A stretch of DNA of 64,000 nucleotides from an uncultured Chloroflexia bacterium (lineage in GTDB: Bacteria; Chloroflexota; Anaerolineae; B4-G1; SLSP01): contig CAVVUS010000037.1 of assembly GCA_963751345.1 (NCBI GenBank), positions 32,001 through 96,000 on the forward strand. Direction: 5' to 3'. Below the pieces are notes generated by a model. The model saw only the letters and a list, made by a program, of their open reading frames with translations. It was not told the origin of the DNA and did no database searches. Positions within the stretch are counted from its first letter, which is position 1. Every line of letters starts with the position of its first letter. Positions 5,311 to 63,140 of the stretch are shown here, in pieces. Position numbers and translations under genes: made by a program.

Positions 5311-7062
5311 ATGCCAGACACACCCAGACCCGAGTACCCGCGTCCGCAGTTCGTGCGCGATGAATGGATCAACCTCAACGGCCCGTGGGACTACGCCTTC
5401 GACTTCGGCAAGTCGGGGCGGGAGCGCAGCTTTCAAACCCGATCGAACTTCGCGGACCTGCCCGACAGCGGCACGATTACCGTGCCCTTCTGCCCCGAGA
5501 GCAAGCTCTCCGGGGTGGCACACACCGACTTCATCGAGATGATGTGGTACCACCGCAAGCTCGCGGTGCCCGCTACGTGGGCCGGAAAACGCGTCGTGCT
5601 CCACTTCGGCGGCGTTGACTACGAGTGCGAGGTCTTCATCGATGGCGTATCCGTCGGTCGTCATTGGGGCGGCACGGTGGCCTTCGCCTTCGACGTCACT
5701 GCGAATGTCACGCCCGGTCAGACCCACGACCTGGTCGTCTACGTGCGCGACGAGGTCCGCTCGCGCGTTCAGCCCGGCGGCAAGCAGTGCCATGCCTACC
5801 GCTCCTATGGCTGTCTCTATACCCGTACGACCGGGATCTGGCAGACGGTGTGGATGGAGGCGGTGCCGGAGTTCGGCCTCAGGGATGTTCAGATCATTCC
5901 GGACCTAGACAACGCGAGTTTCGTCGTCGTGCCCACGTTCTTCGCCGAGAAGCAGGGCCTGAAGCTCCGCGCGACGGTGCTGGCCGATGGCGAGGTGGTC
6001 GACCAGCGGACGCTGGCTGCCGGCAGCGGCCTGCCCTATGTACTTCCTGTAGGGAACCCGCGACCGTGGTCTCCTGCCGATCCCTTCCTCTACGATCTCG
6101 TCTTCGAGGTCGTCGACGGCGATGCCGTTCTCGACCGCGTCGGGAGCTATGCGGGCTTGCGCAAGATCCACATCGAGGGCAACCACGTCTACCTCAACAA
6201 CCAGTCCTTCTACCTGCGCCTGGTGCTCGATCAAGGTTTCTACCCCGACGGCATCTGGACCGCTCCCACCGACGAGGCGCTCAAGCACGATATCGAGCTG
6301 TCGATGGCGGCAGGCTTCAACGGTGCCCGCCTGCACCAGAAGGTCTTCGAGCCGCGCTTCCACTACTGGGCGGACAAACTGGGTTACCTGACCTGGGGCG
6401 AGTCGTCGAGCTGGGGGATGGACATCACGGACGAGGTCAGCGCGCGCAACTTCCTGGCGGAGTGGCGCGAGATCGTGACACGGGATCGAAATCACCCGTC
6501 GATCATCGCCTGGACCCCTTTCAACGAAACACGGGGCGGGGCCGGCAATCCCCAACACGCGCGGCTGCACATCGATGCTTACGAGCTCTGTCACGACCTG
6601 GATCCCACCCGGCCCGTCAACGACGCCAGCGGCTACGTCCACGTCAGAACGGATCTGTGGACCGTACACACCTACAACCAGAATCCCGACGCGCTGCGCG
6701 ATCAGCTCAGGCCTGACGCGGAGACCGGCGTCTGGCGCAACTACCCGGATTTCGAGGTGCCCTATTCCGGACAGCCCTACATCGTCGACGAATTCGGTGG
6801 CATCAAGTGGATTCCCAAAGCCGAGCTCGTCTTCGCCGAGGACTCGTGGGGCTATGGCGAGGATCCCAAGACACTGGAGGAGTTCTACGCGCGCCTCGAG
6901 GGGCTGGTCGACGCTGTCCTAAGCTACGATCATATCTGCGGCTACTGCTACACTCAGTTGACAGACATCGAGCAGGAACAGAACGGAGTCTACAACTACG
7001 ACCGCTCTGAGAAGTTTGATATGAAACGCATCTCTGCTGCGTTCCGAAGGCAGAAAGAGTAG
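5311..7062 (+). CDS. Glycoside hydrolase family 2 (beta-galactosidase/glucuronidase-like)
   Basis: PRPEYPRPQFVR, LHFGGVDY, GIWQTVWME, LDQGFYPDG, NHPSIIAWTPFNE (acid/base), VDEFGG (nucleophile), YTQLTDIEQEQNG. AGGAG RBS. Confidence 0.92.
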   Translation: MPDTPRPEYPRPQFVRDEWINLNGPWDYAFDFGKSGRERSFQTRSNFADLPDSGTITVPFCPESKLSGVAHTDFIEMMWYHRKLAVPATWAGKRVVLHFGGVDYECEVFIDGVSVGRHWGGTVAFAFDVTANVTPGQTHDLVVYVRDEVRSRVQPGGKQCHAYRSYGCLYTRTTGIWQTVWMEAVPEFGLRDVQIIPDLDNASFVVVPTFFAEKQGLKLRATVLADGEVVDQRTLAAGSGLPYVLPVGNPRPWSPADPFLYDLVFEVVDGDAVLDRVGSYAGLRKIHIEGNHVYLNNQSFYLRLVLDQGFYPDGIWTAPTDEALKHDIELSMAAGFNGARLHQKVFEPRFHYWADKLGYLTWGESSSWGMDITDEVSARNFLAEWREIVTRDRNHPSIIAWTPFNETRGGAGNPQHARLHIDAYELCHDLDPTRPVNDASGYVHVRTDLWTVHTYNQNPDALRDQLRPDAETGVWRNYPDFEVPYSGQPYIVDEFGGIKWIPKAELVFAEDSWGYGEDPKTLEEFYARLEGLVDAVLSYDHICGYCYTQLTDIEQEQNGVYNYDRSEKFDMKRISAAFRRQKE

Positions 7063-7072
7063 GGAGCGAGCG

Positions 7073-7109
7073 ACCGGGGGCTGGGGCAAGTCCTGCCCCA
7101 GCCCCCGGT
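7073..7109. terminator. Hairpin between convergent genes
   Basis: Perfect 16-bp stem accgggggctggggca / tgccccagcccccggt with a 5-nt loop. Confidence 0.7.
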
Positions 7110-7127
7110 TCCGAGTCAGTGACGGTC

Positions 7128-8138
7128 CTACGGCAACATCGCGCCGATCACGGCGAGCTGCTGCCTCATAGCCTCCAGCCGCCGCGAGACCACGCTCAAC
7201 ATCGCCTCAGCCACATCCTCGTGGGCCCGGGGGCTTTCCAACCTGACCTTCTCGACCCATTCGGCTGGCAACGCCCCAACGCCTCGATATGCACCGGCTA
7301 AGGCGCCGGCCATCGAGGCGATCGTGTCGGCGTCCCGTCCGAAGTTCGCGCCGTAGAAAATCGCCCGCTGCGGATCCCCTCCCGCGAGGTAGAACAACGA
7401 CAGCGCCACCGGGACGGTTTCGCGCGCATCTGGGATGGCGATTTCGGGCAGAATCCGCTCTGCGTAATAGGTGGCCCGGAATGCGGCATAGTCCGCAGTT
7501 TCCCTTGCCAACGCCAGCGTTGCCGCGATATAGTGGCGCATCACGTGCGCGCTACGGGGCGGCAGGTAGAGTGATGCCGCATCGAGCACCGAGTCCACAG
7601 TCGCCTGTGGATGTAGCGCCGCTGCGACGGCAGCCGCCATCGCGCAGGCTGCGTCACGGGAGAAGTTGTGGTGGATCAACGAGGCCACCTCGAATGTCTC
7701 CAGAGCCGCCTGACGTGGATTGCCTGCGTTGATAATACCCATCGGCGAGATACACATAGCCGAACTGCTGCTAGCCATATTGCCCCGCCCGGCCTCCCGG
7801 GGTGCGACGTTCTCGGCCCGGATCTTCCAGAAGCCATTCATCACCGGAATCCAGAAGAGATGGCGCTTGATGAACATATCCTGCTGAGCCAACCACTCAT
7901 CCGCCCAGATGTCCGCAGTGGGATAGCCCTCGCCGCGCACGATAGCGTCACAGAGAATGTGTTTGAGTGCCGAATCATCGGTACCATAGCCGGAAAAATC
8001 GGTGATCTCGCCAAAGAGCTCCTCGATCTGCTGATACGTCTTCCCCTCCGCGGGTGCACCCATAGCGTCTCCAATCTCCCCACCATAGAGACACCCCAAG
8101 ACATGTTCGTAGAGCGCGCGTTTCGATAGCGACATCAT
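7128..8138 (-). CDS. ADP-ribosylglycohydrolase family protein
   Basis: GDAMGAPAE, GTDDS and GRDADTIASMAGALAGA motifs. Confidence 0.9.
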   Translation of the reverse strand: MMSLSKRALYEHVLGCLYGGEIGDAMGAPAEGKTYQQIEELFGEITDFSGYGTDDSALKHILCDAIVRGEGYPTADIWADEWLAQQDMFIKRHLFWIPVMNGFWKIRAENVAPREAGRGNMASSSSAMCISPMGIINAGNPRQAALETFEVASLIHHNFSRDAACAMAAAVAAALHPQATVDSVLDAASLYLPPRSAHVMRHYIAATLALARETADYAAFRATYYAERILPEIAIPDARETVPVALSLFYLAGGDPQRAIFYGANFGRDADTIASMAGALAGAYRGVGALPAEWVEKVRLESPRAHEDVAEAMLSVVSRRLEAMRQQLAVIGAMLP

Positions 8139-8326
8139 CACCTCCTGCCTTGCGGCGGATCAATCTGCTCTCTGAGCTCGGGCCTGAGTATAGACAAGAA
8201 ATGGGCATGGTGCCAGGCAGTACCTGGGTACGATTGCCAATTCGGCGCCCAGGTGTACAAACGAACTCGTCCTCGGTCGCTGATCGCGGACACGAACGAA
8301 GGAAAATCGCCCTGGGAGATGGGAAT

Positions 8327-9160
8327 ATGCACTTTGACGCACACCAACACTTCTGGCACTACTCAGCGGACGCATACCAATGGATCACGTCGGGGATCTT
8401 GGCGCAGGACTACCTGCCCGTAGATCTCAAGCCGCTGCTCGACGCGGCCGGGTTTGATGGCACCGTCGCAGTTCAGGCGCGATCGACCTGGGAAGAAACG
8501 CGATGGCTATTGACCTTGGCGGAGCGCAATCCCTGGATCGTGGGCGTGGTAGGATGGGCCGACCTCTGCGCGCCGGATCTCGCGGAGCAGTTGGAATACT
8601 TTGCGACGTATCCGGCATTCTGCGGCGTGCGTTGCGATATTGAAACCGAGCCGGGCTCGACGGAGATGCCCTGTCCTAACTTTCTGCAGGGCATGGAAGT
8701 CCTCACGGCCTCAGACCTAACCTTCGACCTCTTGATCCGTCAGGACCAACTCCGACTGGCCTGCCGGCTGGCCGAGTCAGCCCCGGAGCAGCGGCTGATC
8801 CTGGACCACATCGCCAAGCCACCGATTGCAGAACAGGTCATGGAGCCGTGGGCCACCGAGATCCGCGACCTGGCCGCCAATCCGAACGTCGCCTGCAAGG
8901 TCTCGGGCATGGTCACGGAAGCAAGCCGCGGCGGCCTTCACCCCGCGGACTTCCGACCTTACCTGGACGTCGTTTTCGATGCCTTTGGCCCCGAACGCTT
9001 GATGATCGGTTCCGACTGGCCGGTCTGCCTTCAGGCCGCGTCGTACGACACGACGATGCAGATCGTCGCTACCTACATCACCTCTCTGGCGGACGATGCA
9101 CAGGCGGCCGTTCTCGGAGGCACGGCCATCGAATGGTACAAGCTGGCCGTGGACGTCTAA
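8327..9160 (+). CDS. Amidohydrolase_2 family sugar lactonase (L-fuconolactonase-like)
   Basis: DAHQHFW, VAVQA, GVVGW, ILDHIAKP, CKVSG and RLMIGSDWPV motifs. Confidence 0.88.
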   Translation: MHFDAHQHFWHYSADAYQWITSGILAQDYLPVDLKPLLDAAGFDGTVAVQARSTWEETRWLLTLAERNPWIVGVVGWADLCAPDLAEQLEYFATYPAFCGVRCDIETEPGSTEMPCPNFLQGMEVLTASDLTFDLLIRQDQLRLACRLAESAPEQRLILDHIAKPPIAEQVMEPWATEIRDLAANPNVACKVSGMVTEASRGGLHPADFRPYLDVVFDAFGPERLMIGSDWPVCLQAASYDTTMQIVATYITSLADDAQAAVLGGTAIEWYKLAVDV

Positions 9161-9163
9161 TCT

Positions 9164-10127
9164 ATGGAGCCCACCACGTCGCAGAATGATCTACCCAGGG
9201 TCCCCAAGGTAGCCCTGGGGCGCACCGGGATCGTCACTACCAAGCTTGGGCTCGGCACAGCGACCTGGCCCCATCAAGTGTCGTTTGAACAGACTATGGA
9301 GATGCTGCAGACGGCGCTCGACACGGGCATCCGGCACATCGACTGTGCGCCGCTCTACGGGACCGAGGTTATCATCGGGCAAGCGCTGCAGGAGATCGAC
9401 CTCCCTGACGATATCGTCATCGTCACCAAGGCAGGTTCGTATGCCGACCCGGAGCTCGGTATCCATTATACGGGCTACCGTGCCGGACAGATTCGCCGGT
9501 CGGTGGAGCGCAGCCTCAAACGCTTTGGCAGGGAGTTCCTCCACATTGTACACATTCACGACGTGGACACAGAGCACCTGGGACAGGTGTTGGGCAAAGG
9601 CGGCGCCCTGGAAGCACTGGTTGATCTCAAGAGCCAGGGCGTCATCGGCGCCATCGGTATGGGCACTATGGGGTTCGACTGCCTGCAGGCTGCCGTGGAC
9701 AGTGGCGCCGTCGACATCATCCAGGTTTTCCACACGTATACGCTGCTAAACCAGTCGGCAGCTAGCGAACTCTTCCCCTCGGCGCTGAAGAAGAACGTGT
9801 CGATCTTCAACTCTGCGCCCTACGCGGGCTACATCCTGGCCACGGGGGCGACGCCGGATGCGCGCTACAACTACGCGCCGGCTCCCCAAGGCGTGATCGA
9901 GGCCACACGCCGGATCGAAACCGTGCTGGCAACAAAGGGCGTGGACCTGCCTACGGCCGCCCTCGCCTTCTCGCTCCGCAACCCGGATATCGCCGTGACC
10001 ATACCTGCGTCCGGCATGCCCCAGCACGTTGCCCAGTGGGTCGCGGCGATGGAGACACACCCTGACCGATGCCGACTGGGAGGAGATCCTGGCTGCTGCG
10101 GGTGGCCAATACCCGCTGCGGCACTGA
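9164..10127 (+). CDS. Aldo/keto reductase (sugar dehydrogenase-like); frameshift near 10060
   Basis: LGRTG..LGLGT, IDCAPLYG, TKAG, SLKRF..HIHD. The shifted frame gives a typical end, LTDADWEEI...YPLRH*. Confidence 0.85.
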
Positions 10128-10163
10128 CGATCACTCCTCCCCTGAGCTGAAAGGAGCCAAACG

Positions 10164-11324
10164 ATGAGGATCACGTCCCTGGAGACGCTCTGTCTATCCC
10201 GAATGCACGAGCCCGAGCGCCAGTGGGTCACCTCGCGCTACCGGACGGTCAAGGCCGACTGCGCTATCGTCCTCATCCACACGGACGAGGGTGTCACAGG
10301 TATCGGGGAAGCCAGTGCCTACGGATGGCCGCTGATGATCCGCGACTGGGTGAGTTGGCTGGAGCCGGAACTGGTCGGCAAGGATCCGCAGGATATGAGC
10401 ATCGCACCGCCGCCCAACGGCAGCGGGCGAGCGCACGATGCAGCCGTCGGCGGTATCGACTGCGCGCTCTGGGACCTCCGAGGCAAGATCGCGGGCAAGC
10501 GCGTCAGTGAACTGCTGAGTGACACTTCCCTGGACAGGGTGCGAGTCTACGCCTCCAGCGGCTGCAGGTACGATTGGCGGGATCGCCCGGAGCAGCTCAT
10601 CGAGGAGGCCGTGGGCTACATCGAGCAGGGCTTCACCGCGATGAAGTTCCGCATTGGAACCGAATGGGAATGGGACGGCGTGACGGTCGATCGGTTCCTC
10701 GGGCTGGTGCGGGAGCTGGCACAGGAGGTCGACGGCAGGATGGACCTGATGCTCGACGGTAACTGCCGCCTGACCGAGGACCAGTCGATGGCCGTGGCGA
10801 TGGAACTGGATCGGCTCGATTTCGCCTGGTTCGAGGAACCGATGCCGCGCGACCTGATCGATGCCCACACTCGCCTGGCAGCCGCAGTCGAGATGCCGAT
10901 CTCCGGCGGTGAGGTCTTCACCACGCTTTCCCAGTTCCGGCCATACCTCGATGCCCGCGCCTACGATATCGTACAGCCCGACGCCGCGCTCTGCGGCCTC
11001 ACCGAGGCGATGCGCATCGCGCGGGTGGCCCACCGCTACGGCGTGCCCACCGCACCCCATAGTTGGCACAACGGCCTGATGGCGATGGCGCACGCGCACT
11101 TCATCGCGGCGCTGCCCACCCCACTGATGCTCGAGGTCTGCCAGATCCAGGGACCGCTCCAATGGGCGATCCTGGCCGAGAAGCCGAAGATCGAGGACGG
11201 CTACCTGATCTTGCCCGAGGGTCCCGGCTTCGGCGTCTCGCTGGCGGACGATCTGGAGGCAACGTTCCCCTATATCGAGGGACATTACGCCGTGCAGGTA
11301 CAACGGCAAGGGATAGGTCAATAA
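10164..11324 (+). CDS. Mandelate racemase/muconate lactonizing enzyme family (probable acid-sugar dehydratase)
   Basis: TDEGVTGIGEA, IDCALWDLRGK, KFRIG, LDGN, WFEEP, GGE, VQPD, APH and PGFGV motifs. Confidence 0.9.
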   Translation: MRITSLETLCLSRMHEPERQWVTSRYRTVKADCAIVLIHTDEGVTGIGEASAYGWPLMIRDWVSWLEPELVGKDPQDMSIAPPPNGSGRAHDAAVGGIDCALWDLRGKIAGKRVSELLSDTSLDRVRVYASSGCRYDWRDRPEQLIEEAVGYIEQGFTAMKFRIGTEWEWDGVTVDRFLGLVRELAQEVDGRMDLMLDGNCRLTEDQSMAVAMELDRLDFAWFEEPMPRDLIDAHTRLAAAVEMPISGGEVFTTLSQFRPYLDARAYDIVQPDAALCGLTEAMRIARVAHRYGVPTAPHSWHNGLMAMAHAHFIAALPTPLMLEVCQIQGPLQWAILAEKPKIEDGYLILPEGPGFGVSLADDLEATFPYIEGHYAVQVQRQGIGQ

Positions 11325-12205
11325 TGGAAAAGTTCGCACCGCTGAATATGACACCAGACGAGATCGTCGACTACACGTACCTGTGGACCGGCGAACGCTT
11401 TGCCGACGGCCGGCCAAAGGTGCCGGACAGCTTGCTGGAGCGGGTGGCGCACGTCACCCTGACTCAAGCGTGGGGTGTACTGAGGAACGAGGGCTATCAT
11501 TGGCAGTACGAGGATGGCTTCGTCTGCACGCACCCAGGTGGTGTGCTTGTGGGGCGGGCCCTGACCGCGATGTACATGCCGCGGCGACCCGCGATGCGCA
11601 CGCTGATGGAGCAGAAAGGGGATCGGGCCGGGTGCATCGGCGACCAGATCTCCTGGCCCATCGATCTATTGGTGACGGGCGACGTCTACGTCGCCGACGT
11701 CTACGGCAAGCATGAGCAAGGGCCGATCATCGGCGACAACCTCTCCACGGCGATCTTCGCCAAGTCGGGCCGGGGCGTCGTGCACGACGCATCGGTGCGT
11801 GATATCGACGGCATCCGTGAGATCGAGGGCTTCGCCAGCTTCGTCCGTGGTTTTCACCCAACCTACGCCTCGCCCACTATTATGCTGGTCGGCGTGAATT
11901 GCCCCGTACGCATCGGACAGGTCACGGTGATGCCCGGCGATGTGGTCCTGGGCAAACACGAGGGCGTGATCTTCATCCCACCGCACCTGGTCGAGAAGGT
12001 CGTCGAGACGTCCGAGCTGATCCGGCTGCGAGATATGTTCGGAAAGCAGCGGCTCCGAGAGGGCAAGTACACGCCGGGTCAGATCGACACGCGCTGGGTC
12101 GACGAGATCGAGGCCGATTTCTCCCGGTGGCTGGAGAGTCACATCGAGCAGCTCCCCGTCCCCGCCGATGCAATCCAGAAGCTGCTCGAGGAACGCACGT
12201 GGTAG
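11324..12205 (+). CDS. RraA/HMG-aldolase family protein
   Basis: GERFADGRPKV, GDNLS, VRDIDG and TVMPGDVVLG motifs. ATG overlaps the upstream TAA. Confidence 0.85.
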   Translation: MEKFAPLNMTPDEIVDYTYLWTGERFADGRPKVPDSLLERVAHVTLTQAWGVLRNEGYHWQYEDGFVCTHPGGVLVGRALTAMYMPRRPAMRTLMEQKGDRAGCIGDQISWPIDLLVTGDVYVADVYGKHEQGPIIGDNLSTAIFAKSGRGVVHDASVRDIDGIREIEGFASFVRGFHPTYASPTIMLVGVNCPVRIGQVTVMPGDVVLGKHEGVIFIPPHLVEKVVETSELIRLRDMFGKQRLREGKYTPGQIDTRWVDEIEADFSRWLESHIEQLPVPADAIQKLLEERTW

Positions 12206-15200
12206 CTGGAGATCTGGTCAACCTCGCCGACTTCGCCCATCTACGATGGTGGGAAGGGGCCGCGCCCGGATTCGATCCGCGCCCACGCCGTGACCGCCGA
12301 TGCCTCAGGCATGCTCAGGCCGGTCCAGATGGGGGATGGGACCTGGCACCTCGGGCTGGAGTGGGATGAACCACGGGATGTGTCACGCGTCGTGGTCACT
12401 TACTCCGATATAGGTGCCCACCCGACCTGCAGGTCGAGTATTGGCAGGCCAACTGGCCGACCCCGGCACCGGAGCGGCGAACAGGCGCTCGGCGCGGCTG
12501 GATCGGGCGAGACGATCCATGGCACGGCCGGTGGATCAGGGCGCGTGGCGTAAGCGTGGTCGATGGAGAGACCTGCGCCTTCGTCTTTGATCCCGTGGAC
12601 GGGCCTGAGCTCCGCCCCTGGGTGAGCTGGGAGGCGCTGGAGGAAGCAGAGGACTATTTGGCGCGGTTCAGGCGGACGCTCAAAGTGCGACTGGTCAGCG
12701 GCGGATCGGATGAGCCTATCGTAGAGCATCTCGAGGTCACATCCGGAAGCCGCTGGCGAGAAGGGCAGATCAGGGCTGTCCTCGACCATCCACGGGATGT
12801 GGCCTCCCATCAGGCATTTTGGGTCGAATCCGCCAACGGCCGCATCGCTGCATCCAAAGAGGTGGGAGATAACGAGGTGCACGTCCGCGTGCTGTACGCC
12901 GGTAACGACGCAGCAAGCGCGGATCGCACCATCCTCACCATCGGCGGGCCGGTCCCCACCTTCTCATTCCTGGTCGGCGACCTGGATCGCGGGCCGATCT
13001 ATCTGCCCGACTACGGTGTGACGGTCACCTGGGCCGACGTTCCCGCTCTCTCTTACCGACCTCAGGCAGCGGATCTCCAACGCGCCCCGACCCATCTACG
13101 ATCGGGTCCTTGACGAACCCGAGCAGTCGCTGGCACGGGCGATGGCCGAGATTCCACCGCTCGATGTCGAGAAGCAGGATTCCTATATGGGCTTGGGGCG
13201 GTATCTTCCGCTGGGGATCGACGGAGGCCGGCAGGAGTTCGCCCTGCGGCATAACGGCGAGCTCTTCGTCGCCAAGTCGCAGCTCAAGTTATCCGGGCGG
13301 GACGCAGCGCGCCTGCTCTGGGCAGGTCAGCAGATGCGCTTCCGTTTCGGCACCGGGGATCCGCCTGACTTCCGCGAGGCAGATCACCGCACCGAGCAGA
13401 CACTGCTCGAGGGTTGGCTCCCCGTAGTGATCAGCCGGTGGATGGACCGCGAGATGGCCTTCGAGGAGACCACTTTCGCGACCCTGCTCGACAAACCCAT
13501 TCGAGGCTCCCGCGAACGGCGCGGGGACGAGGACGTCGTCGCGATGACCAGGTTTGCGATCCGCAATACCACGCAAGGGCGTAAGCGGGCGCACCTGTGG
13601 CTCAATATCCTGCCGCAGGAATCCCTTCTCCTTGAGGACGGGATGCTCGTTGCCGAAGGGCGCGTCGTTCCGGATGTCGCCGTGGCGCGCCAGTGGCGCG
13701 TGGCGCCCTATCCGGCCCCCCGATTTCGCTGCGCGTTCGCCTCGGGAGGACGTGGCACGGCGCAGATCGTGACGATGACCGATGACCCACAGGCATCACA
13801 CGCCATCCCGACGGGCCTGCTCTACAGCGTCGACCTGGAAGGTGGGGAGACCCACGAAGTGACGTTGGCCATCCCCTTTGCGACACCGGTCGAAGACGGG
13901 GACATCGCCGCGATCGAAGCTCTGAACTTCGATCGCGAGCTCGCCGACATCTGTGACTACTGGCGACGAACAGTGGCCTCGGGTGGGCAGATGGTCGTGC
14001 CCGAGCAGGTGCTTGCGGACTTTCACAAGGCAGCCCGCGTGCACGTCGGAATCACCGCCGACAAGGATCCGGTCAACGGCCTGACGGTCGTCCCGGCTGC
14101 CACCTGGTCGTATGGCGCCTGCGGGAACGAGGCGTGCTGGCAGATCTCGATGCTCGACCAGGCGGGTCACCACGATCAGGCAGAGGATTATCTGGAGAGC
14201 TTCATCCGAACCCAGGGCATCCACAGACCCGATGGGCGCTTCGCTTCCAGCGATGGCGCCCTGGTGGCGATGGATTTCGACGGTGGGCGGCCTGTGATGG
14301 GCGGCTTTGCCTACAATCTCGACCAGGGCTTTATCATGGAGTGTCTCGCCGATCACTACCGCTATAGCGGCGACCGTACGTGGCTGGACCGTGTGACCCC
14401 TGCCTTGATCGCAGCGTGCGACTTCGTGGCCCGCGAACGAGCGCGGACGAAACAGCACGACGCACACGGCAGCGCCATCGAAGCCTGGGGCTTGCTGCCG
14501 GCGGGACATCTCGAAGACAACCCGGAGTGGCGTCATTGGTTCGCGGTGAACGCGCACGCCTACGCGGGGCTACGCGCTATTGCCGACGTGCTCACCGAGA
14601 TCGCTCATCCCGCCGGGGCCCGACTCCGACAGGAAGCCGCCAGCTATCGCGAGGATATCCGCGCCGCAGCGAGGCGAGCCATGGCTCGGTCACCGGTCGT
14701 CCGGCTGCTCGACGGTTCCTACGTGCCTCACGTCCCCACCCGGACCGGAATCCGCGGACGTGAGTCGGGCTGGTTCCGCGAGGCAGCCTACGGACCACTC
14801 CATCTGCTGGAGGGCGGCGTCTTCGACCCCAACGAGGACGAGGTCACGTGGATCCTCAAAGACCTGGAGGACAACCTCTTCGTGAGCCGGGAATGGGGCC
14901 GCCCGGTCGACCTGGAGCGCACATTGGTTCAGCCACGGCGGCGTTAGCGATTCAGGCCAACCTGATGGATCTCTCCATTGACTACCTCCGGCGAGGTCAG
15001 GTGAAGCACGCCCTGCGGGCACTCTTCAACAATTTCGGCGCTTCCCTCTATCCGGACGTGCGGACCTTCACGGAGCATCCGGTCGTCGAACTCGGTCACG
15101 GCGTCGGCCCCTTTTACAAATCATCGGACGAGAGCAAAGCACTCATTTGGCTGCGCCACTGCCTGCTCCACGAGGAAGGAGCCGCCCTTCACCTCTGCAA

Positions 15201-54068: not shown

Positions 54069-54980
54069 TCATTTACTCCACGTCATCAACGGCGCCAGCC
54101 CCTTCAGAATCTCATCCAGGTATGCTGACGAGACGTCGTCCAGCGGCATCGGGCCATTGCGCTTGAGCGGGCAGTCGATGACACCGCGACGATAGAGCAC
54201 TTCCTTGTAGGAGCCTGGGAGCTGGTGCTCGAAGAAGAAGAGGGGAGCCATTTCCTTGTAGATGTGCAGGGCGTGCGCATCGTCGCCACTTTCCAGCGCA
54301 TGCCAGAGGGCCACGACGACGTCGGTCACATGACAGCCAGGCATGTTGCCCGCGGAACCGCGCCGGAATTCCTCGATCAGATAACGCCCGCCGGCGCCGC
54401 CGAAGACACCCCTGCACGACCTATCGTTCCGCGCCAGTAGTTGCGAGAGCTTCATCGTCGTGGGCGTGGTCTCCTCTTTCACGTACTGCACCCACTCGAT
54501 CTCACGGCAGAGCCGCAACAGCAGATCAGCACTCATATCGGTACCCACCGGCGGCCCATAGTTCTGGATGAAGATGGGCAAGCGGGCAGCGTCGGAGATC
54601 GCCCGATAGTAAGCCCATATGACCGTTTCCGGCGTGCTTCCGCGATGGATATAAGGTGGCATTGCGATGACGCCGTCCGCCCCGATCTCGCGCGCGTGTG
54701 CCGCGAACTTTGCAGCGACCTCCTTCGCCACACCTGCGACGCCGATGATGGCCGGAATACGCCCGGCGTCCTGCTCGACCAGCACTTCCGTCAGCGTGAA
54801 GCGCTCGGCATCACTCAGCGACGTGAATTCACTGGCGTTCACCGGAAAGACCAAGCCGTGGGCACCACATCCAATACAGAAGTCGACCACGCGGCGGAAA
54901 CTGGCGACATCGATCTCCCCGTCCTCACGGAAGGGGGTGGAGGGAATGGTGAATATGCCTCGGAAAGGTGTGTGGGTCAT
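54069..54980 (-). CDS. Dihydrodipicolinate synthase family aldolase/dehydratase
   Basis: TPFREDGEID, E..SLSDAER, GADGV..PPY and YVKEE (Schiff-base Lys). AAGGAG RBS. Confidence 0.88.
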   Translation of the reverse strand: MTHTPFRGIFTIPSTPFREDGEIDVASFRRVVDFCIGCGAHGLVFPVNASEFTSLSDAERFTLTEVLVEQDAGRIPAIIGVAGVAKEVAAKFAAHAREIGADGVIAMPPYIHRGSTPETVIWAYYRAISDAARLPIFIQNYGPPVGTDMSADLLLRLCREIEWVQYVKEETTPTTMKLSQLLARNDRSCRGVFGGAGGRYLIEEFRRGSAGNMPGCHVTDVVVALWHALESGDDAHALHIYKEMAPLFFFEHQLPGSYKEVLYRRGVIDCPLKRNGPMPLDDVSSAYLDEILKGLAPLMTWSK

Positions 54981-55121
54981 ATCGCCTGGCTCCTTCTTGA
55001 GTATGCCAACAGAGACGATCCGATCGTGGAGGTATCGTAGCCCGCTCCGGCAGGCGCGCAACCGGACGATGGTCCCGCGGTTCTAGACGACACACCACCG
55101 AGCCGACCGTGCACTTTCCCG

Positions 55122-55191: not shown

Positions 55192-55569
55192 ATGCACAGG
55201 ATCGTGATAACAGCCGGGGACGTGACGATAACAGCAGAGCTAAACGAGAGCCCAACTGCCCTGGAAATATGGGAGGCTCTGCCCATTCAGGCCCAGGCCA
55301 ATATCTGGGGCGATGAGGTATACTTCGAAATCCCGGTGACACAGGCACAGGCACCGGATGCCCGGGCAGAGGTCGACGTGGGGACGCTGGGGTATTGGCC
55401 GGTCGGCAGCGCCTTCTGTATCTTCTTTGGGCCAACGCCGGTAAGTACCGGAAGCAAGCCGCGTGCATACAGCCCGGTGAACGTGATTGGCTCAGTCATA
55501 GGTGATGTGACCCCGCTCCAGCGTGTCCAGCAGGGGGATTCCGTGAGGATCGCCAGAGCGAAGGCCTGA
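55192..55569 (+). CDS. Cyclophilin-like fold protein (DUF369/TM1367-like)
   Basis: WGDEVYF, GYWPVG.AFCIFFGPTP and SPVNVIG motifs. Confidence 0.88.
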   Translation: MHRIVITAGDVTITAELNESPTALEIWEALPIQAQANIWGDEVYFEIPVTQAQAPDARAEVDVGTLGYWPVGSAFCIFFGPTPVSTGSKPRAYSPVNVIGSVIGDVTPLQRVQQGDSVRIARAKA

Positions 55570-55647: not shown

Positions 55648-56103
55648 CTACTTAACCTGGATCTCTACCACGCCCTTGACCTGAAGGTTACCGGGGAAGT
55701 CCGGAAGCACGGTGCTGAAGCCGCCCTGGTTGCGGAATGAGACAATACAGTTCGAGCACCCCTGTAGCTCGCTCAATGCCACCTCGGCCGTGTAGCCATC
55801 GTCGGCCACAAAGACCACCGTGGTCGCACCACTCGCGACGCCGGCGATACCCAGCAGATCGTTGATCGGAACGCCCGTGTAGGTGCTCGCGACCCCATCC
55901 TTGTTGGTAGACTCGACATCGATGGCATCCATCGCCTTGAGGTCAGCCTCCGTCCAGCCGACCTCACTGTCCACACTACCGGTGACCTTGAGTGCAGCGT
56001 CGCTGGGGACACCTGAGCTGGTACCGCTCGGGCTGCCACACGCCGTCAGCGCCATAGCCACCACCAAGATGACGACCAACCATAGACCAGATCTCTTCGA
56101 CAT
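55648..56103 (-). CDS. Lipoprotein with sulfite-oxidase-type molybdopterin-binding-like fold
   Basis: LTAC lipobox; LKVTG.V...T.ADL..M...YTGVPI.DLL..AG....VVFVADDGY...VKGVVEI. Confidence 0.75.
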   Translation of the reverse strand: MSKRSGLWLVVILVVAMALTACGSPSGTSSGVPSDAALKVTGSVDSEVGWTEADLKAMDAIDVESTNKDGVASTYTGVPINDLLGIAGVASGATTVVFVADDGYTAEVALSELQGCSNCIVSFRNQGGFSTVLPDFPGNLQVKGVVEIQVK

Positions 56104-56152: not shown

Positions 56153-56635
56153 TCACGGATTGACCGTGAGGGTTTGCACCTGGAATACCCAGCGATTCGC
56201 TGGCGTCTCCGGGCAGACCAACCGGATGGGACCTTTGTCCGGCTCCGCCTTGGTGATCCACGTTCCATCTTTCTGCAATGCGACGATTGCATTCTGGAGC
56301 TCGTCTCGCGTGATCTCGATGGCATAGCCGTCTGCCGCGGTCGCCGTGATCGTAGCGAACTCTCCGACACCTGATTGACTCAGGATTGCGTCAAGCGAGA
56401 CTCCGCTCCACGAAGCCGTCTCGTCCTCGCCCAATGACTTCTGCATCAGGATATCCGTCAGATCGATTTGGGGCATACCTGCCAGATCGGCATAGCTCAA
56501 CGCAAGCGGCGTGCTCACATCACCCTCGATCGAGAGCGTCCACTCCACCTTGGGGGCACTATTGCAGGCCGCCGCCAGCAGGACGACACCGGTCAGGAGA
56601 CATAGAGCCAACAACCTCATCGTTTTCATTTCCAT
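56153..56635 (-). CDS. Lipoprotein with Oxidored_molyb-like fold
   Basis: AAAC lipobox; WTLSIEGDV..PL.LSY.DL..MP...WSGVSL..IL...AADGY...GPIRLV.P....RWV. Confidence 0.8.
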   Translation of the reverse strand: MEMKTMRLLALCLLTGVVLLAAACNSAPKVEWTLSIEGDVSTPLALSYADLAGMPQIDLTDILMQKSLGEDETASWSGVSLDAILSQSGVGEFATITATAADGYAIEITRDELQNAIVALQKDGTWITKAEPDKGPIRLVCPETPANRWVFQVQTLTVNP

Positions 56636-56704: not shown

Positions 56705-57844
56705 TCACGGCTCTCTGACAAAGACCGGGATCAGCATATCCCGGGCAATGAGGTGCCCGTGATTGCCCTGTCGACCCTCCTCGTCCACGGTGTGCATCCC
56801 GTGGTCCGCCACCATCAGTACCAACGTGCCGTCGGGCAGAGCCTCGAGAAGCTGTCCAACAGCAGCGTCCACCCCCCTGATCGCAGCGACCTCCTCCGGC
56901 GCGCCGGGCCCGTACGTGTGCCCCGCGTCATCGATACCGTGGAAATGGACCCACAGCAGATCGGGCATACCCGCTTCGATGGCGGAGAGCGCATTGGCCA
57001 ACACGTTGTCATCGGTGCTCCCGTTTCCATCGCGATCGCCCGACAGTACGATTTCTGCGTCACGCAGGTTGAACGCCAACGCGTCCCCCTCAATGGCGAC
57101 GACCTGACGCTCTGCCGCGGACAAGACCCTAAACACAGTCTCCACCTCGGTGCTGCGGATGCCCCTGTCCGTTACGCCATTGACGACCGGCGGAGCGCCG
57201 CTCAGAAGCGCCGCCGAGGCAACCGCTGTGCAAGGCGGATAGACGGTCAACCCTATGAGTGGATCGCCCAGCGAAGCGAGAACCGGGATCAAGCCCGCGT
57301 CACGCGCCTCCGTGTATCGGACGTAGCCAAAGCCATCGAGGATCATTAGCAGAACGCGATCCGCCGGGCCGACCGCCAGGGACTTGCCGGTGGCCTCCGC
57401 CGGCGCGGGCAGGCCAAGCGCGTCCGCCGCCGTCGGGGCCAGGTCCGTAATGCTCACACTCGGCGCTGAAGGGAGCGTCAGTGGCTCGACGGACAGAGCT
57501 GCAGGTACGATAGTATTCCCACCTAGCGTGATCTTGCCGTCCAGAGACCACCAAGCGTCTTCCGCCGTTGGATCCCAACTATACGTCGTGACACTCCCTG
57601 CGGTGTCCGTAACGGTCACCGAGCTCACCAGATGATAGGCTGCCGCGTACAGCACGGTATCTACCGGCACGCCGTCCGACTCTCCGTGGGCCAGCAGGCC
57701 CTTCACCACATCGCGGTTCACCACGCCTGTCGATCCATCGGGGCCAACCACGATTGTCTCCCAGGCGTGTGCACAGCCAGACAGACCCAGCAAGCCGATC
57801 AGAAACACAATACATGCCGAAAGCACCGCCACAGATCGCTTCAT
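56705..57844 (-). CDS. Alkaline phosphatase superfamily (NPP/phosphodiesterase-like) lipoprotein
   Basis: LSGC lipobox; LDGFG, YPPCT (Thr nucleophile), DDAGH..GP, ADHG.H and NHG metal ligands. Confidence 0.82.
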   Translation of the reverse strand: MKRSVAVLSACIVFLIGLLGLSGCAHAWETIVVGPDGSTGVVNRDVVKGLLAHGESDGVPVDTVLYAAAYHLVSSVTVTDTAGSVTTYSWDPTAEDAWWSLDGKITLGGNTIVPAALSVEPLTLPSAPSVSITDLAPTAADALGLPAPAEATGKSLAVGPADRVLLMILDGFGYVRYTEARDAGLIPVLASLGDPLIGLTVYPPCTAVASAALLSGAPPVVNGVTDRGIRSTEVETVFRVLSAAERQVVAIEGDALAFNLRDAEIVLSGDRDGNGSTDDNVLANALSAIEAGMPDLLWVHFHGIDDAGHTYGPGAPEEVAAIRGVDAAVGQLLEALPDGTLVLMVADHGMHTVDEEGRQGNHGHLIARDMLIPVFVREP

Positions 57845-57847
57845 GCG

Positions 57848-58762
57848 CTATTGGCTCTCCAGGGCCACTACATCTGCGACCCACTGCCCGCGGCCGCGAT
57901 CAGGAAACACCAACGTCGCCTGCCCACGTACCTGCGCCAAGAGCGCGCCACGCGCCTCGTCGACGGTCACCGTCTGCGCGGTGCCATCGGCACTGCGGAC
58001 CGTAAGGGTCGTGAATGACGGATCGGCAAGGATTGCCGATACCAGAATGCCGTTGATACGGGAGCCGGCCTGCGCCGTGCGCACCTGTCCGTCGTCCTCG
58101 CTCTTAAACATGACGTCGGCCTGCTCCACTGTCACCGATTGCACGGGCCCCAGCAGGAGACGGCCCATCGACGTCGCCCGCCCATCCACCTCTAGCGGAG
58201 TCTCTTGCCCCACGACAACGACACGCCTGATACCTTTCAGCCACGCGGAAACGTGCAGATCAGGAGATGCGAATCGAATGCCATCTTCGTAGGGCAGCAG
58301 CAAGGCGGCGTCCGTCAGATTCTGGCGCTCGATGGTGACAAAGCCGCCGTCATCGGATGCCAGGGTGACGCTATCGAAGTCCGCTACACCTTGCGCGGAG
58401 AGGAACGCCGTAAGTGCCACGTGGGTGTTTGGCTGATCCCGGTAGGGCAGCACGTCATCGACCAGAACGTACCCCGGCTCGGGTACATCTCCTTCGAAAG
58501 CCACCACAGCATAGAAGGGGACGTCGCTCAATTCCAACGCTCCGTGCTCATCATGGCACGTGGTGCAGCGATGAAACTCCGCGGTGTCGTGACACTCGGC
58601 ACATGCACTCATGGTCGCCGCCTCTTCGGCGAGCACCTTGACCGGATAGTCTGTAAGCACACGGACGGGCACAGCGTGCATCGAGCCGACGACCACCCCG
58701 ATCGTGCCGCCCAGCAGCACCAACAGAACAAACCCGGGCACCAACCAACGGGATCTTCTCAT
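57848..58762 (-). CDS. Membrane-anchored di-heme c-type cytochrome with two molybdopterin-binding-like repeats
   Basis: N-terminal signal/TM; CAECH and CTTCH; ASDDG..WLKGI and SADG..WVADV repeats. Confidence 0.7.
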   Translation of the reverse strand: MRRSRWLVPGFVLLVLLGGTIGVVVGSMHAVPVRVLTDYPVKVLAEEAATMSACAECHDTAEFHRCTTCHDEHGALELSDVPFYAVVAFEGDVPEPGYVLVDDVLPYRDQPNTHVALTAFLSAQGVADFDSVTLASDDGGFVTIERQNLTDAALLLPYEDGIRFASPDLHVSAWLKGIRRVVVVGQETPLEVDGRATSMGRLLLGPVQSVTVEQADVMFKSEDDGQVRTAQAGSRINGILVSAILADPSFTTLTVRSADGTAQTVTVDEARGALLAQVRGQATLVFPDRGRGQWVADVVALESQ

Positions 58763-61131: not shown

Positions 61132-62493
61132 CTACCTCACTTCCAGGGCCATGACCTTCGGCGCGATCACCGTCCCGTCCATCCGTGCGACGGCGAACGT
61201 GATTCCGAGCCCGTCGATGACGGTGAAGATACGGACATCATCACTGTCCCACAAGCCCTCCAGCGGCAACGTGACAGGTGCCTCCGGCGTTTGGATGATC
61301 AAGTCGTGAGCGTCCACCTCAGGTTCCATCGAGGCAATCACCGCCCCTAATGGTACGCCCTGCAGCTTCTGTGCCCCGTGCCCTACGTCGAGACTGACGC
61401 TGTCCATCTCGAACTGCCACGCGTCAGGGTCATAAGCCCCGGCCGCCGCGAGCTTTCCCGAAACGTCGAGCGTCACGCCACCGATCACCGTCAATGAACT
61501 GACGCCACGCACCCACGCCTTGCTGTTTTCCGGGCCCACGAGGTCGAAGGTCGCATCATCGCCGTTGCCCGACGGTACCAGGAGCAACGCCGGGTTGTCA
61601 CGCACCTCCTTCAGGCTCACAAAGAACGCATATCCATCGGCAGCGCGGACGAGCAGCAGGCCGGCGTCGCTTGCAGGCTGAGCACGGGCAAGCATCTCAC
61701 GAACGGGCACACCGGAGTATCGCGCCGGCGTCCCTCGCAGCGACGCCTCGGCCGTGATGCGCGGAATATCACCGTGCGCCGTGGGGTAGGCATAGGGCGC
61801 GGCTACCGCCCCATCCACCGTGACGACTGCCGGGCCGCGGAGCGCACCGCGCAGATAAAGGCCAAAGAGGATCGTCAGTATGGCAGCCCCGCCCACCCAT
61901 ACGGGAGCGACGCGGCGATCCCGTGACGGGGCAGGCAGGTCCTTCACTACACCCGCTCGGCGAAGCGCCCCCAATAGCACCCAGCCCAGTACCCCGGCAA
62001 AGACCACACCCGAGATGGCGGCCATGCCACCTACGAGGGCAAGTGCGCCGTAGGCCAGAAGATCGGCAGGCAGGGCAGCGAAGAGCTGAAAAACAAAGAC
62101 ATTTGACGCCGACGCGAGGCCACCGGCCAGCACATAGGCCGGCAGGCGGTCCTTTCTCCGAAAGAAGAGAAAGACGGCATCAACGAGCAAGCCCGCGACA
62201 ACGTCGACGAGCACAACCAACAGGCCGTGGGTGTTCCCTGTGAGGAACTCGACGCTACCCTTGAGGATTCCGGTCAGCGTCCCCGCCCCAACCCGTCCTG
62301 TCAGTCCTATCGCGAGCGTGAGCCACAGCACATGCAGCCCGGCAGCCCACTGCGTCGACCCGGCAAAGCCCAGGATCGACTGGGCGAGGTCGCCGATAGC
62401 ATTGATGTAGGTGCTCGTGACACCGCCAAGGGCCGCCAGCGCAGCCATCATCAGCCAATCACGCGTGGCGAGGCCAGGTCGCTCTGTGCGCAT
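61132..62493 (-). CDS. ECF S component (YkoE/ABC_cobalt-like) fused to two molybdopterin-binding-like domains
   Basis: About 6 TMs with GLH.LWL.....GRVGAG..TG..KG.VEFLTG..HG, ending LRRAGV. Then an extra TM and VDGAV...YSGVPV...AADGY...WVRGV plus a second LQGVPL repeat. Confidence 0.8.
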   Translation of the reverse strand: MRTERPGLATRDWLMMAALAALGGVTSTYINAIGDLAQSILGFAGSTQWAAGLHVLWLTLAIGLTGRVGAGTLTGILKGSVEFLTGNTHGLLVVLVDVVAGLLVDAVFLFFRRKDRLPAYVLAGGLASASNVFVFQLFAALPADLLAYGALALVGGMAAISGVVFAGVLGWVLLGALRRAGVVKDLPAPSRDRRVAPVWVGGAAILTILFGLYLRGALRGPAVVTVDGAVAAPYAYPTAHGDIPRITAEASLRGTPARYSGVPVREMLARAQPASDAGLLLVRAADGYAFFVSLKEVRDNPALLLVPSGNGDDATFDLVGPENSKAWVRGVSSLTVIGGVTLDVSGKLAAAGAYDPDAWQFEMDSVSLDVGHGAQKLQGVPLGAVIASMEPEVDAHDLIIQTPEAPVTLPLEGLWDSDDVRIFTVIDGLGITFAVARMDGTVIAPKVMALEVR

Positions 62494-62517: not shown

Positions 62518-62551
62518 AAAGAAAAACGGCATGCCCAGGAAAGGCATGCCG
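62518..62551 (-). terminator. Intrinsic terminator in the riboswitch expression platform
   Basis: Minus strand cggcatgcc-tttcctg-ggcatgccg-tttttcttt, 24 nt before the S-component ATG. Confidence 0.85.
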
Positions 62552-62605
62552 CAGTCCACGACGGAACGCGCCACTCACATAAGTGGCGCGCCCTGTAGAG
62601 GGAGG

Positions 62606-62710
62606 GCATCTCCTTTCCAAACACGGGAGGCATGGCCGTTTCCCGCCATACCCAATGGTCTCAGGCCTTGGGAGGTAAAGTATCCTTTAGGCTGTGAGAC
62701 TCGGAGACAA
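62606..62710 (-). ncRNA. Moco RNA motif riboswitch, P3-lacking (tungsten-cofactor-type) variant
   Basis: Minus strand ucuccgag...ccuaa...gggUAUGGCgggaaacGGCCAUGCCUcccguguuUGGAAAGGAGA. P1 ucucc/ggaga, P2 gucuca/ugagac, P4 with GAAA loop and the 3' CCUCCCG...UGGAAAGGAG signature. Recognised by eye, not by covariance search. Confidence 0.85.
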
Positions 62711-63140
62711 GCTATGGATGTGCAACGTGTAAGGTACTGTGATCCAAAGGCAATCCTACCACGCCGGACCACAAACACAAATGGCACCTGATCCTGGCGC
62801 ATGGTGTTTGGGCGCTCTCTCGTCTATCGCCAGGGCGTACGCATGTCGAGCCGCAGCAGGCCGCCGGGCAGTGCACAACTCCTCAGCGACGACCCCTTCC
62901 CTAGGTGAGACGCGGCGACGCCCGTCTTCTGCTGCGCCGGGAACGCCGTTCGAGACAAACGTCGCGTCCCCAAGGCACTCCACCACGCGGTAGACGCCCC
63001 GACGACGCACTCCAATGCGCGGCTTCCCCAGTAGCATGCCACGTGAAATGCCTGCGTCCTGGCCTTTCCCTCTCCGAGGGACGCTGCTATGATAGCGGCA
63101 TCACGACGAGCGGCTACCATTACGCCCAAGGGAGGGTGCT

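Follow-up and report, generated by a model that had tools for sequence, protein, structure and literature searches.

The DNA analysed in this study is a stretch of 64,000 nucleotides (the window) from an uncultured Chloroflexia bacterium of the class Anaerolineae (assembly GCA_963751345.1, contig CAVVUS010000037.1, positions 32,001 to 96,000), and its reverse strand carries an operon of seven genes with the parts of an energy-coupling factor (ECF) importer. The first gene encodes the S-fusion, an ECF S component joined to two tandem outer domains, and it is followed by genes for a fused A-A' ATPase, a T component, a diheme protein (p304), an NPP-type phosphodiesterase (p379) and two SUOX-like lipoproteins (p160 and p150). 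Directly upstream of the S-fusion gene lies a riboswitch for the molybdenum or tungsten cofactor (Moco or Tuco), which is the single Rfam element of the window.

The S-fusion gene is an open reading frame (ORF) of 453 codons plus a stop. We take the ATG at 62493 to be its true start, because the GTG upstream, at 62574, is part of the riboswitch leader and the ATG is preceded by a Shine-Dalgarno sequence (GGGAG); the start positions of homologues agree with this choice. Residues 12-128 score 58.8 bits (E 7.6e-16) with PF09819, the Pfam model ABC_cobalt for S components of the YkoE type, where the cut-off is 25.2, and no NCBIfam family was matched. A profile built from 49 S-fusion orthologues finds the YkoE structure (PDB 5edl) at E 2.5e-14, and an AlphaFold2 model made from the same alignment (pLDDT 80.2, pTM 0.61) is aligned to 5edl by Foldseek with a TM-score of 0.74 on the target. 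In this model, helices at residues 10-41, 50-65, 70-84, 90-110, 117-139 and 145-179 are followed by a seventh at 195-217 and then by beta-rich domains at 224-338 and 342-452. Counted by eye with the helix limits of the model, 14 lysines and arginines lie in the N-terminus or in one of the loops 66-69, 111-116 and 178-194, and zero in 42-49, 85-89 and 140-144. Because this pattern puts both ends of the S core in the cytoplasm and one extra helix follows, the last 235 residues should be extracytoplasmic. An earlier note on this DNA had described a 453-residue protein composed of an S domain, a linker, an extra transmembrane helix and two repeats, with the C-terminal domains outside the cell. The PF09819 match, the modelled helices and the alignment of the repeats (below) bear out that composition, and the charge distribution together with the seventh helix confirms the placement.

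The fusion is also not the product of a missed stop codon, a possibility that the same note had raised. A search for relatives of similar length gave 877 clusters at E <= 0.001 among 8000 candidates scored, and the best 120 of these 877 are all full length (439-520 residues, at least 97% query cover, 61-99% identity). By source name they belong to Anaerolineae/Chloroflexota, and 81 of the 120, among the matches listed, carry precomputed annotation with both PF00174 and PF09819. Shorter relatives were considered as true split genes, and six of them were read: those from Anaerolineae look like cut or frameshifted gene calls. Two S components from Planctomycetota (P0165 and P0166) have the seventh helix and are devoid of the outer domains. 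Some distant homologues, at 34% identity, match residues 1-303 only, that is, the S core and one outer domain (L113, 5887-6768, and L112); L113, from the metagenome-assembled genome (MAG) of a Methanomicrobia archaeon, has p150-like and p160-like genes nearby.

Species-representative genomes contain 70 S-fusion loci, and conservation of the operon was scored where the sequence runs on for 6 kb or more past the S gene, which leaves 38 loci. An S gene with the fused tail is accompanied by A-A' and T in 37 of these 38, and there is a lipoprotein in 35, the diheme protein in 34 and the phosphodiesterase in 32, and all six partner features are found together in 31.

Outer domains and operon partners

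An hhalign comparison of the two S-fusion repeats (97.9%, E 3.6e-13) shows them to be homologous, so their resemblance is not due to chance. Scored directly, repeat 1 falls below the PF00174 threshold (17.1 bits against 24, E 0.004), and the Pfam scan gave no PF00174 match on repeat 2. The profile of repeat 1 aligns with both operon lipoproteins (hhalign 99.8% for p150 and 98.3% for p160), that of repeat 2 aligns with p150 (97.6%), and p150 and p160 align with each other at 100%; both lipoproteins exceed the PF00174 threshold by themselves. Because of these profile matches, the fold searches and the PF00174 plus PF09819 annotation of the orthologues, we link both repeats to PF00174; the earlier note had made the same connection, which thus stands through relatives and fold, the direct hidden Markov model score being sub-threshold.

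Foldseek, run with the whole S-fusion model, returned YkoE, enzymes of the SUOX fold (SorA at 1.5e-6, SoxCD, nitrate reductase, sulfite oxidase and YedY) and several structures of PruR, annotated "pterin binding protein" (7rkb, with neopterin, 7kos, 7kou, 7kom and 7kp2). The profile of the p160 family, searched against PDB, matches SorA at 2.8e-10 and PruR at 2.1e-6 (7kom) and 1.7e-5 (7kos), and the AlphaFold2 model of p160 (pLDDT 87.7) is matched to 7kom by Foldseek at E 9.7e-8, with a TM-score of 0.74 over the whole target. No cysteine is invariant or near-invariant in residues 218-453 of the 49 S-fusion orthologues, nor in the p160 family, and therefore the molybdenum ligand of SUOX enzymes is missing. 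PruR is a periplasmic pterin binder in which, according to PMC11194511, the pterin is sandwiched by a tyrosine (Y104) and a tryptophan (W160), with an asparagine (N102) two residues before the tyrosine. Invariant in repeat 1 among the 49 orthologues are D286-G287-Y288 and K325-A326-W327-V328, and the p160 equivalents of the DGY motif and the tryptophan are D102 (46/46 orthologues), Y104 (45/46) and W149 (46/46). Repeat 2 is degenerate: its invariant residues are W359, M363, Q378 and G379, the DGY motif is absent, and repeat 1 is thus the only one of the two to keep DGY...W.

Among the other products of the operon, the start of the T component overlaps the stop of A-A' by 4 nt. For p304 no Pfam or NCBIfam family was found; its CxxCH motifs stand at residue 54 in 37/43 orthologues and at residue 66 in 43/43, and its residues 237-302 align with p160 (hhalign 95.3%). 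The match of p379 to PF01663 (E 1.6e-19, 71.1 bits against 23) is accompanied by conservation of D170, T206, D305, D306 and H309 in 37/37 orthologues and of D347, H348 and H362 in 35/37, which we take to be the catalytic metal-ligand and nucleophile residues of NPP enzymes. The exported proteins of the operon have Sec or lipobox-type N-termini, and a twin-arginine (Tat) signal is found on the MsrP-like SUOX enzyme of this genome. Because their signals are of the Sec/lipoprotein type and not Tat, the surface modules have no means of taking out a cytoplasmically loaded cofactor, and their ligand has to reach them on the outside. At its end the operon is flanked by a cyclophilin-like PF04126 gene (55192-55569, forward strand) and a DHDPS-family gene (54069-55061, reverse strand), with which no link was seen.

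Table 1. Features of the S-fusion operon and of a second ECF operon in the same genome; coordinates are positions in the window unless a locus is named.
Feature	Position	Strand	Evidence or remark
Moco/Tuco riboswitch aptamer RF01055, P3-less subtype	62594..62718	-	71.6 bits against gathering threshold 36, E 2.6e-15
Intrinsic terminator hairpin (11 bp) and U tract, riboswitch expression platform	62526..62552	-	terminator scan
S-fusion gene (P0001), 453 aa	61132..62493	-	ORF call and homologue starts
ECF S core, aa 1-192, YkoE-like, six transmembrane helices	61918..62493	-	PF09819, 5edl
Seventh transmembrane helix, aa 195-217, after K/R-rich cytoplasmic linker aa 178-194	61843..61911	-	AlphaFold2 model and sequence
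Repeat 1, aa 222-338, Cys-less SUOX/PruR-like domain	61480..61830	-	profiles, fold
Repeat 2, aa 339-453, diverged copy of the repeat 1 domain	61135..61479	-	profiles, AlphaFold2 model
Fused ECF A-A' ATPase, 512 aa	59584..61122	-	two ABC_tran domains; TIGR04520 341.8 bits
ECF T component, 261 aa	58802..59587	-	PF02361 CbiQ E 8.4e-30
p304, N-terminally anchored, two CxxCH haem motifs, C-terminal SUOX-like domain	57848..58762	-	motifs, hhalign
p379, lipoprotein-type signal, N-terminal domain, NPP/alkaline-phosphatase-type phosphodiesterase	56705..57844	-	PF01663
p160, lipoprotein, single Cys-less SUOX/PruR-like domain	56153..56635	-	PF00174 E 3.2e-13, 50.1 bits
p150, second SUOX-like lipoprotein, last operon gene	55648..56103	-	PF00174 E 4e-7, 30.2 bits
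Second ECF operon	L004 (G000:C14:268000-284000), 6141-14020	-	outside window

Riboswitch control and phyletic pattern

In the alignment of the window's riboswitch the positions of the P3 stem are deleted, and P3 is absent from all 31 aligned riboswitches of the order. Regulski and colleagues (2008) sorted Moco RNAs by this stem, proposed the P3-less class as a sensor of the tungsten cofactor, a finished cofactor, and noted that Moco riboswitches also precede genes of enzymes that use it (PMC2408646). Between aptamer and start codon lies the terminator hairpin (three terminator-like sites were observed in the region against 0.5 expected), then the GGGAG and the ATG. An order-specific model built from the 31 riboswitches and applied to the 70 S-fusion loci placed a riboswitch at most 700 nt upstream of the S gene, on the same strand, in 54, and 3.4 kb upstream in one. 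One subclade of the operon (L082-L093, L104, L105 and L108, with S-fusions 43-50% identical) has no riboswitch though upstream sequence is present. Of 101 genomes sampled from the order, 92 carry the riboswitch, and by coordinates it lies upstream of the S-fusion in 17 of the 18 fusion-carrying genomes.

The genes that this RNA controls across the order were surveyed at its 29 best loci outside the window. WtpA follows in 15 (NCBIfam 389.8 bits against a cut-off of 355), the S-fusion in 6, a TupB-like permease scoring below the TupB cut-off in 3, molybdoenzyme-like genes in 2, and moaA-moaC, another membrane protein and a contig end in 1 each. Many genomes of the window's family also have a weaker variant of about 110 nt (36-49 bits) located 100-250 nt upstream of an AOR-family tungstoenzyme gene (for example G032:C235:10660-10770, G047:C4:96071-96181, G044:C14:34199-34308 and G094:C431:38825-38935). 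Tandem pairs of P3-less riboswitches occur before WtpA-type and other genes (G004:C71:13871-14233, G089:C201:15318-15699, G079:C3:60855-61224 and L059 7339-7685). In Syntrophomonas wolfei, P3-less RNAs before genes for a "putative sulphite oxidase" were an unexplained exception, and a seven-gene operon with a triple riboswitch was reported to hold transport genes and genes of unknown function (PMC2408646). The S. wolfei cases may be systems of the same kind.

The presence of cofactor synthesis, metal importers and tungstoenzymes was tabulated for the 38 genomes of the window's family, which lie within the 101-genome sample. All 18 fusion genomes of the order sample fall in this family (18/38). 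MoaC and the C-terminal domain of MoaA occur in the same 22 genomes, and 14 of the 16 genomes that lack both carry the S-fusion. In these 14 of the 18 fusion genomes (operon-only genomes hereafter), MoaC, the MoaA C-terminal domain, WtpA, ModA, a strong TupB-like permease and a second ECF S component were all not found; the eight family genomes in which MoeA was not found are all among them. AOR-family genes are nonetheless present in 38/38, with 1-10 matches in each of the 14, and at least 8 of the 14 have the 110-nt riboswitch variant before an AOR gene. WtpA is found in 45 genomes of the order sample, none shared with the S-fusion; within the family it occurs in 0/18 fusion genomes against 14/20 of the others. 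A candidate metal importer is present in 21 of the 22 pterin-making genomes, including all four that carry the fusion; as those four keep another candidate importer, the operon is no substitute for metal uptake in cofactor-making genomes. MoaE (PF02391) was detected in 11 of the 38 genomes, in few of those positive for MoaA and MoaC and in none of the 14, so that its absence weighs little.

One genome (G059) is without MoaA, MoaC, S-fusion and WtpA and keeps two MoeA genes and a TupB-like permease. At its locus L037 (G059:C7), a 202-residue polytopic membrane protein begins about 510 nt after a strong riboswitch. It was considered as a relative of either S component and no relation was detectable; it may represent another salvage route.

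The window's own genome has eight AOR genes, and neither WtpA, ModA nor TupB was found in it. It contains a second ECF operon, headed by a second P3-less Moco riboswitch (63.8 bits), with genes for a 248-residue soluble protein (methanogenesis-marker-11/TiaS-TCKD-like), a 767-residue A-A'-T fusion, a membrane-anchored ecto-protein of 159 residues and an S-like protein of 182-194 residues (PF09819, 21 bits), and then moaA, moaC, moaD, moaE and moeA. This operon may be an ECF tungstate importer, since it is the sole candidate metal importer beside the synthesis genes in this genome (G000) and in G090. It adjoins the S-fusion operon in L059, L066, L076, L077, L079, L080, L081 and L100. Its 159-residue ecto-protein gave no significant profile match to the repeats, in an alignment of three sequences only. 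The moaE of the window's genome (L004, about 7515-7855, reverse strand) is spread over three frames, implying two frameshifts, with its end fused in frame to moeA. The cause is either gene decay or a fault in the assembly; in G090, of the same genus, moaE is an intact ORF of 168 residues.

Proposed cofactor salvage weighed against its alternatives

Genomes that keep tungstoenzymes without pterin synthesis, without a tungsten or molybdenum importer and often without the enzyme for metal insertion, and that nevertheless have a cofactor-sensing riboswitch before a vitamin-type importer with pterin-fold receptors, are most simply accounted for by salvage of the cofactor. Based on sequence comparison and structure models, we infer that the S-fusion is probably the capture subunit of a group I ECF importer that salvages a pyranopterin cofactor, be it Tuco/Moco or molybdopterin (MPT). 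The metal-free MPT is the less likely substrate of the two, compared with Tuco/Moco itself. A narrower proposal, to which we commit ourselves only tentatively, is that these Anaerolineae are auxotrophs for the tungsten/molybdenum pyranopterin and import the metal-loaded cofactor through the ECF system after extracellular capture and trimming, in which PruR-like receptors, an NPP pyrophosphatase and the diheme protein would take part. The architecture, topology, homologies, riboswitch, operon conservation and phyletic pattern are observations, and the functional claim built on them is one of comparative genomics and fold similarity only. The earlier note had proposed a tethered module that captures a labile cofactor, and the upstream riboswitch, the loss of MoaA/MoaC and of importers with tungstoenzymes kept, and the likeness to PruR all support that proposal. 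Its premise that S components need no extra proteins was too strong, CbiN and NikK/L being accessory parts of metal ECF systems, and the fused domains turn out here to be part of a larger surface set.

Several points weigh against this interpretation. The family genomes are draft MAGs, 80-97% complete, in which an absence means that a gene was not found. The Fisher values for the fusion against MoaC (4e-5) and against WtpA (4e-6) are overstated, the relatives not being independent; a stronger sign is the switching between the two states inside single genera (g1, 6+1 against 4; g5, 3 against 3; g6, 1 against 2; g7, 2 against 2). MoeA is kept in 6 of the 14 operon-only genomes, as would be expected if the metal were inserted after import, and more than one imported species would thus be compatible with the pattern. 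The window's own genome keeps moaA, moaC, moaD and moeA, in its second riboswitch-controlled ECF operon. No riboswitch was found at 15 of the 70 S-fusion loci, one of which has only 160 nt of upstream sequence. The putative equivalence of DGY/W with N102/Y104/W160 of PruR was derived from the offsets of the 7kos alignment, which bring DGY to within about one residue of N102/Y104, and not from superposition. Finally, the PruR pocket is reported to be too short for Moco (PMC11194511, PMC13259868), and Moco and Tuco are described in a review as chemically labile outside proteins (PMC9026282).

In the main alternative, tungstate or molybdate is what the ECF system imports: the SUOX-like domains and lipoproteins would bind the oxyanion, and the operon would take the place of WtpABC. 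ECF importers of metals are known for cobalt and nickel. The same riboswitch class stands before WtpA and the TupB-like permease at 15 and 3 of the 29 best loci, the fusion and WtpA never co-occur, and the window's genome, with its eight AOR genes, shows none of the three metal importers sought. We held this idea first, because of the mutual exclusion of fusion and WtpA, and demoted it because of the absences of MoaC, MoeA and MoaA: metal alone gives no cofactor in the 14 of 18 operon genomes without MoaA and MoaC, eight of which also lack MoeA, the metal-insertion enzyme. In addition, a further candidate metal importer is retained by all four operon genomes that make the pterin, the S core belongs to the type serving thiamine and hydroxymethylpyrimidine (HMP), organic vitamin compounds, and the outer domains resemble a pterin binder, no oxyanion-binding family having been matched in Pfam, NCBIfam or Foldseek. 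We therefore regard tungstate import as unlikely.

It is similarly improbable that the operon imports an early precursor or another pterin, such as cyclic pyranopterin monophosphate (cPMP), a compound of the neopterin/monapterin type or a folate-type compound, in place of the finished cofactor. cPMP is the most stable intermediate of the Moco pathway. PruR binds small pterins in a pocket reported as too short for Moco, and the six operon-only genomes with MoeA could be read in the same sense. However, a cell importing cPMP would still depend on MPT synthase, and MoaE was detected in 0/14 (a weak point, the family being detected in only 11/38), and the eight genomes without MoeA or a metal importer could not complete a metal-free precursor. 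The riboswitch class is proposed to sense the finished cofactor, and the phyletic link is with Moco synthesis, not with folate.

That the surface proteins form an extracytoplasmic redox system like SorAB, the ECF part serving cofactor delivery or repair, is very improbable: the fold and the haem partner do recall SorA/SorB and Moco riboswitches also precede enzyme genes, but there is no conserved cysteine to ligate molybdenum or tungsten and no dimerisation domain, the Sec/lipoprotein signals would not let a cytoplasm-loaded cofactor travel along, ECF systems are importers, and the loss of MoaA/MoaC would be left unexplained.

If salvage of the pyranopterin cofactor is indeed the role of the operon, the following sequence of events could be proposed. 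With little cofactor inside the cell, the P3-less riboswitch would leave the terminator unformed and the seven genes would be transcribed. The Sec-exported, Cys-free SUOX-fold modules, namely p160, p150, the C-terminal domain of p304 and the S-fusion's repeat 1, would act as PruR-like receptors and bind the pterin as PruR does. The surface phosphodiesterase may trim dinucleotide forms (molybdopterin guanine dinucleotide, MGD, and molybdopterin cytosine dinucleotide, MCD) to the MPT form used by AOR enzymes, and the haems may hold the ligand reduced, guarding a compound labile to oxygen and oxidation. Repeat 1, positioned above the S core by the seventh helix, would then hand the ligand to the YkoE-like pocket, with repeat 2 as a possible spacer or docking surface. 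The S core would topple against T as A-A' hydrolyses ATP, and AOR-type apo-enzymes would finally be loaded with the imported cofactor.

Relation to known systems

We found no description, in the literature searched, of a receptor tethered to an ECF S component, nor of uptake of Moco or Tuco by an ECF system or by microbes in any other way. A 2021 review states that all organisms have to make Moco de novo and that most are unable to take it up, with C. elegans as the sole known exception (PMC9026282), and a 2026 review of bacterial pterin signalling calls the passage of pterins across membranes unknown (PMC13259868). In one preprint, a possible role in molybdopterin uptake is suggested for some type 11 secretion proteins. 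The system would thus be new in two respects: a receptor is tethered to a group I ECF importer, and the predicted substrate is novel. If true, it would be the first pathway in a prokaryote for uptake of Moco/Tuco at the level of the cofactor, and the tungsten/molybdenum pterin would join the vitamins exchanged among microbes, cross-fed in anoxic communities like B12. It would explain genomes with up to ten tungstoenzyme genes that lack MoaA/MoaC and suggest a growth factor for the culture of Anaerolineae. It would also offer a tractable set of proteins for the movement of a labile cofactor from cell to cell, which bears on the therapy of Moco deficiency.

Among importers, a close relative is YkoEDC of Bacillus subtilis, a group I ECF system for thiamine/HMP, with which the operon shares the PF09819 S family, A-A' and T genes in the same operon and riboswitch control. 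It differs by the seventh transmembrane helix, the two SUOX-fold ecto-domains and the four extra exported proteins, by a Moco/Tuco riboswitch in place of one for thiamine pyrophosphate, and by its predicted substrate, a pyranopterin cofactor; both the class of riboswitch and the distribution across genomes speak for a substrate other than thiamine/HMP. WtpABC, TupABC and ModABC belong to the same riboswitch regulon in this order and also supply tungsten and molybdenum enzymes; they are binding-protein-dependent type I ABC importers of oxyanions and occur together with MoaA/MoaC, whereas the S-fusion operon occurs mostly without them.

With PruR, the outer domains share a small exported SUOX fold, the lack of the molybdenum-ligand cysteine and, going by alignment, a putative aromatic pair (DGY...W here). 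PruR, unlike these domains, has a Pro-Trp in place of the cysteine loop and is the signalling partner of the c-di-GMP enzyme DcpA, with no tie to a transporter. The domains of the operon are either joined to the S component of an ECF importer or encoded next to its genes, and the operon has no GGDEF/EAL partner. The SUOX molybdoenzymes (SorA, SoxC, sulfite oxidase and YedY/MsrP) have the same cofactor-binding fold (Foldseek E of about 1e-6 to 1e-8), whereas the modules of the operon, of about 115 residues each, are devoid of the molybdenum-ligand cysteine and of the dimerisation domain and are exported by Sec or as lipoproteins and not by Tat. Finally, the tethering of a receptor to a membrane subunit has its parallel in OpuA and GlnPQ, type I ABC importers with fused substrate-binding domains. 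These are of another transporter class and use another receptor fold, and a receptor domain tethered to an ECF S component, as in the S-fusion, would be a first.

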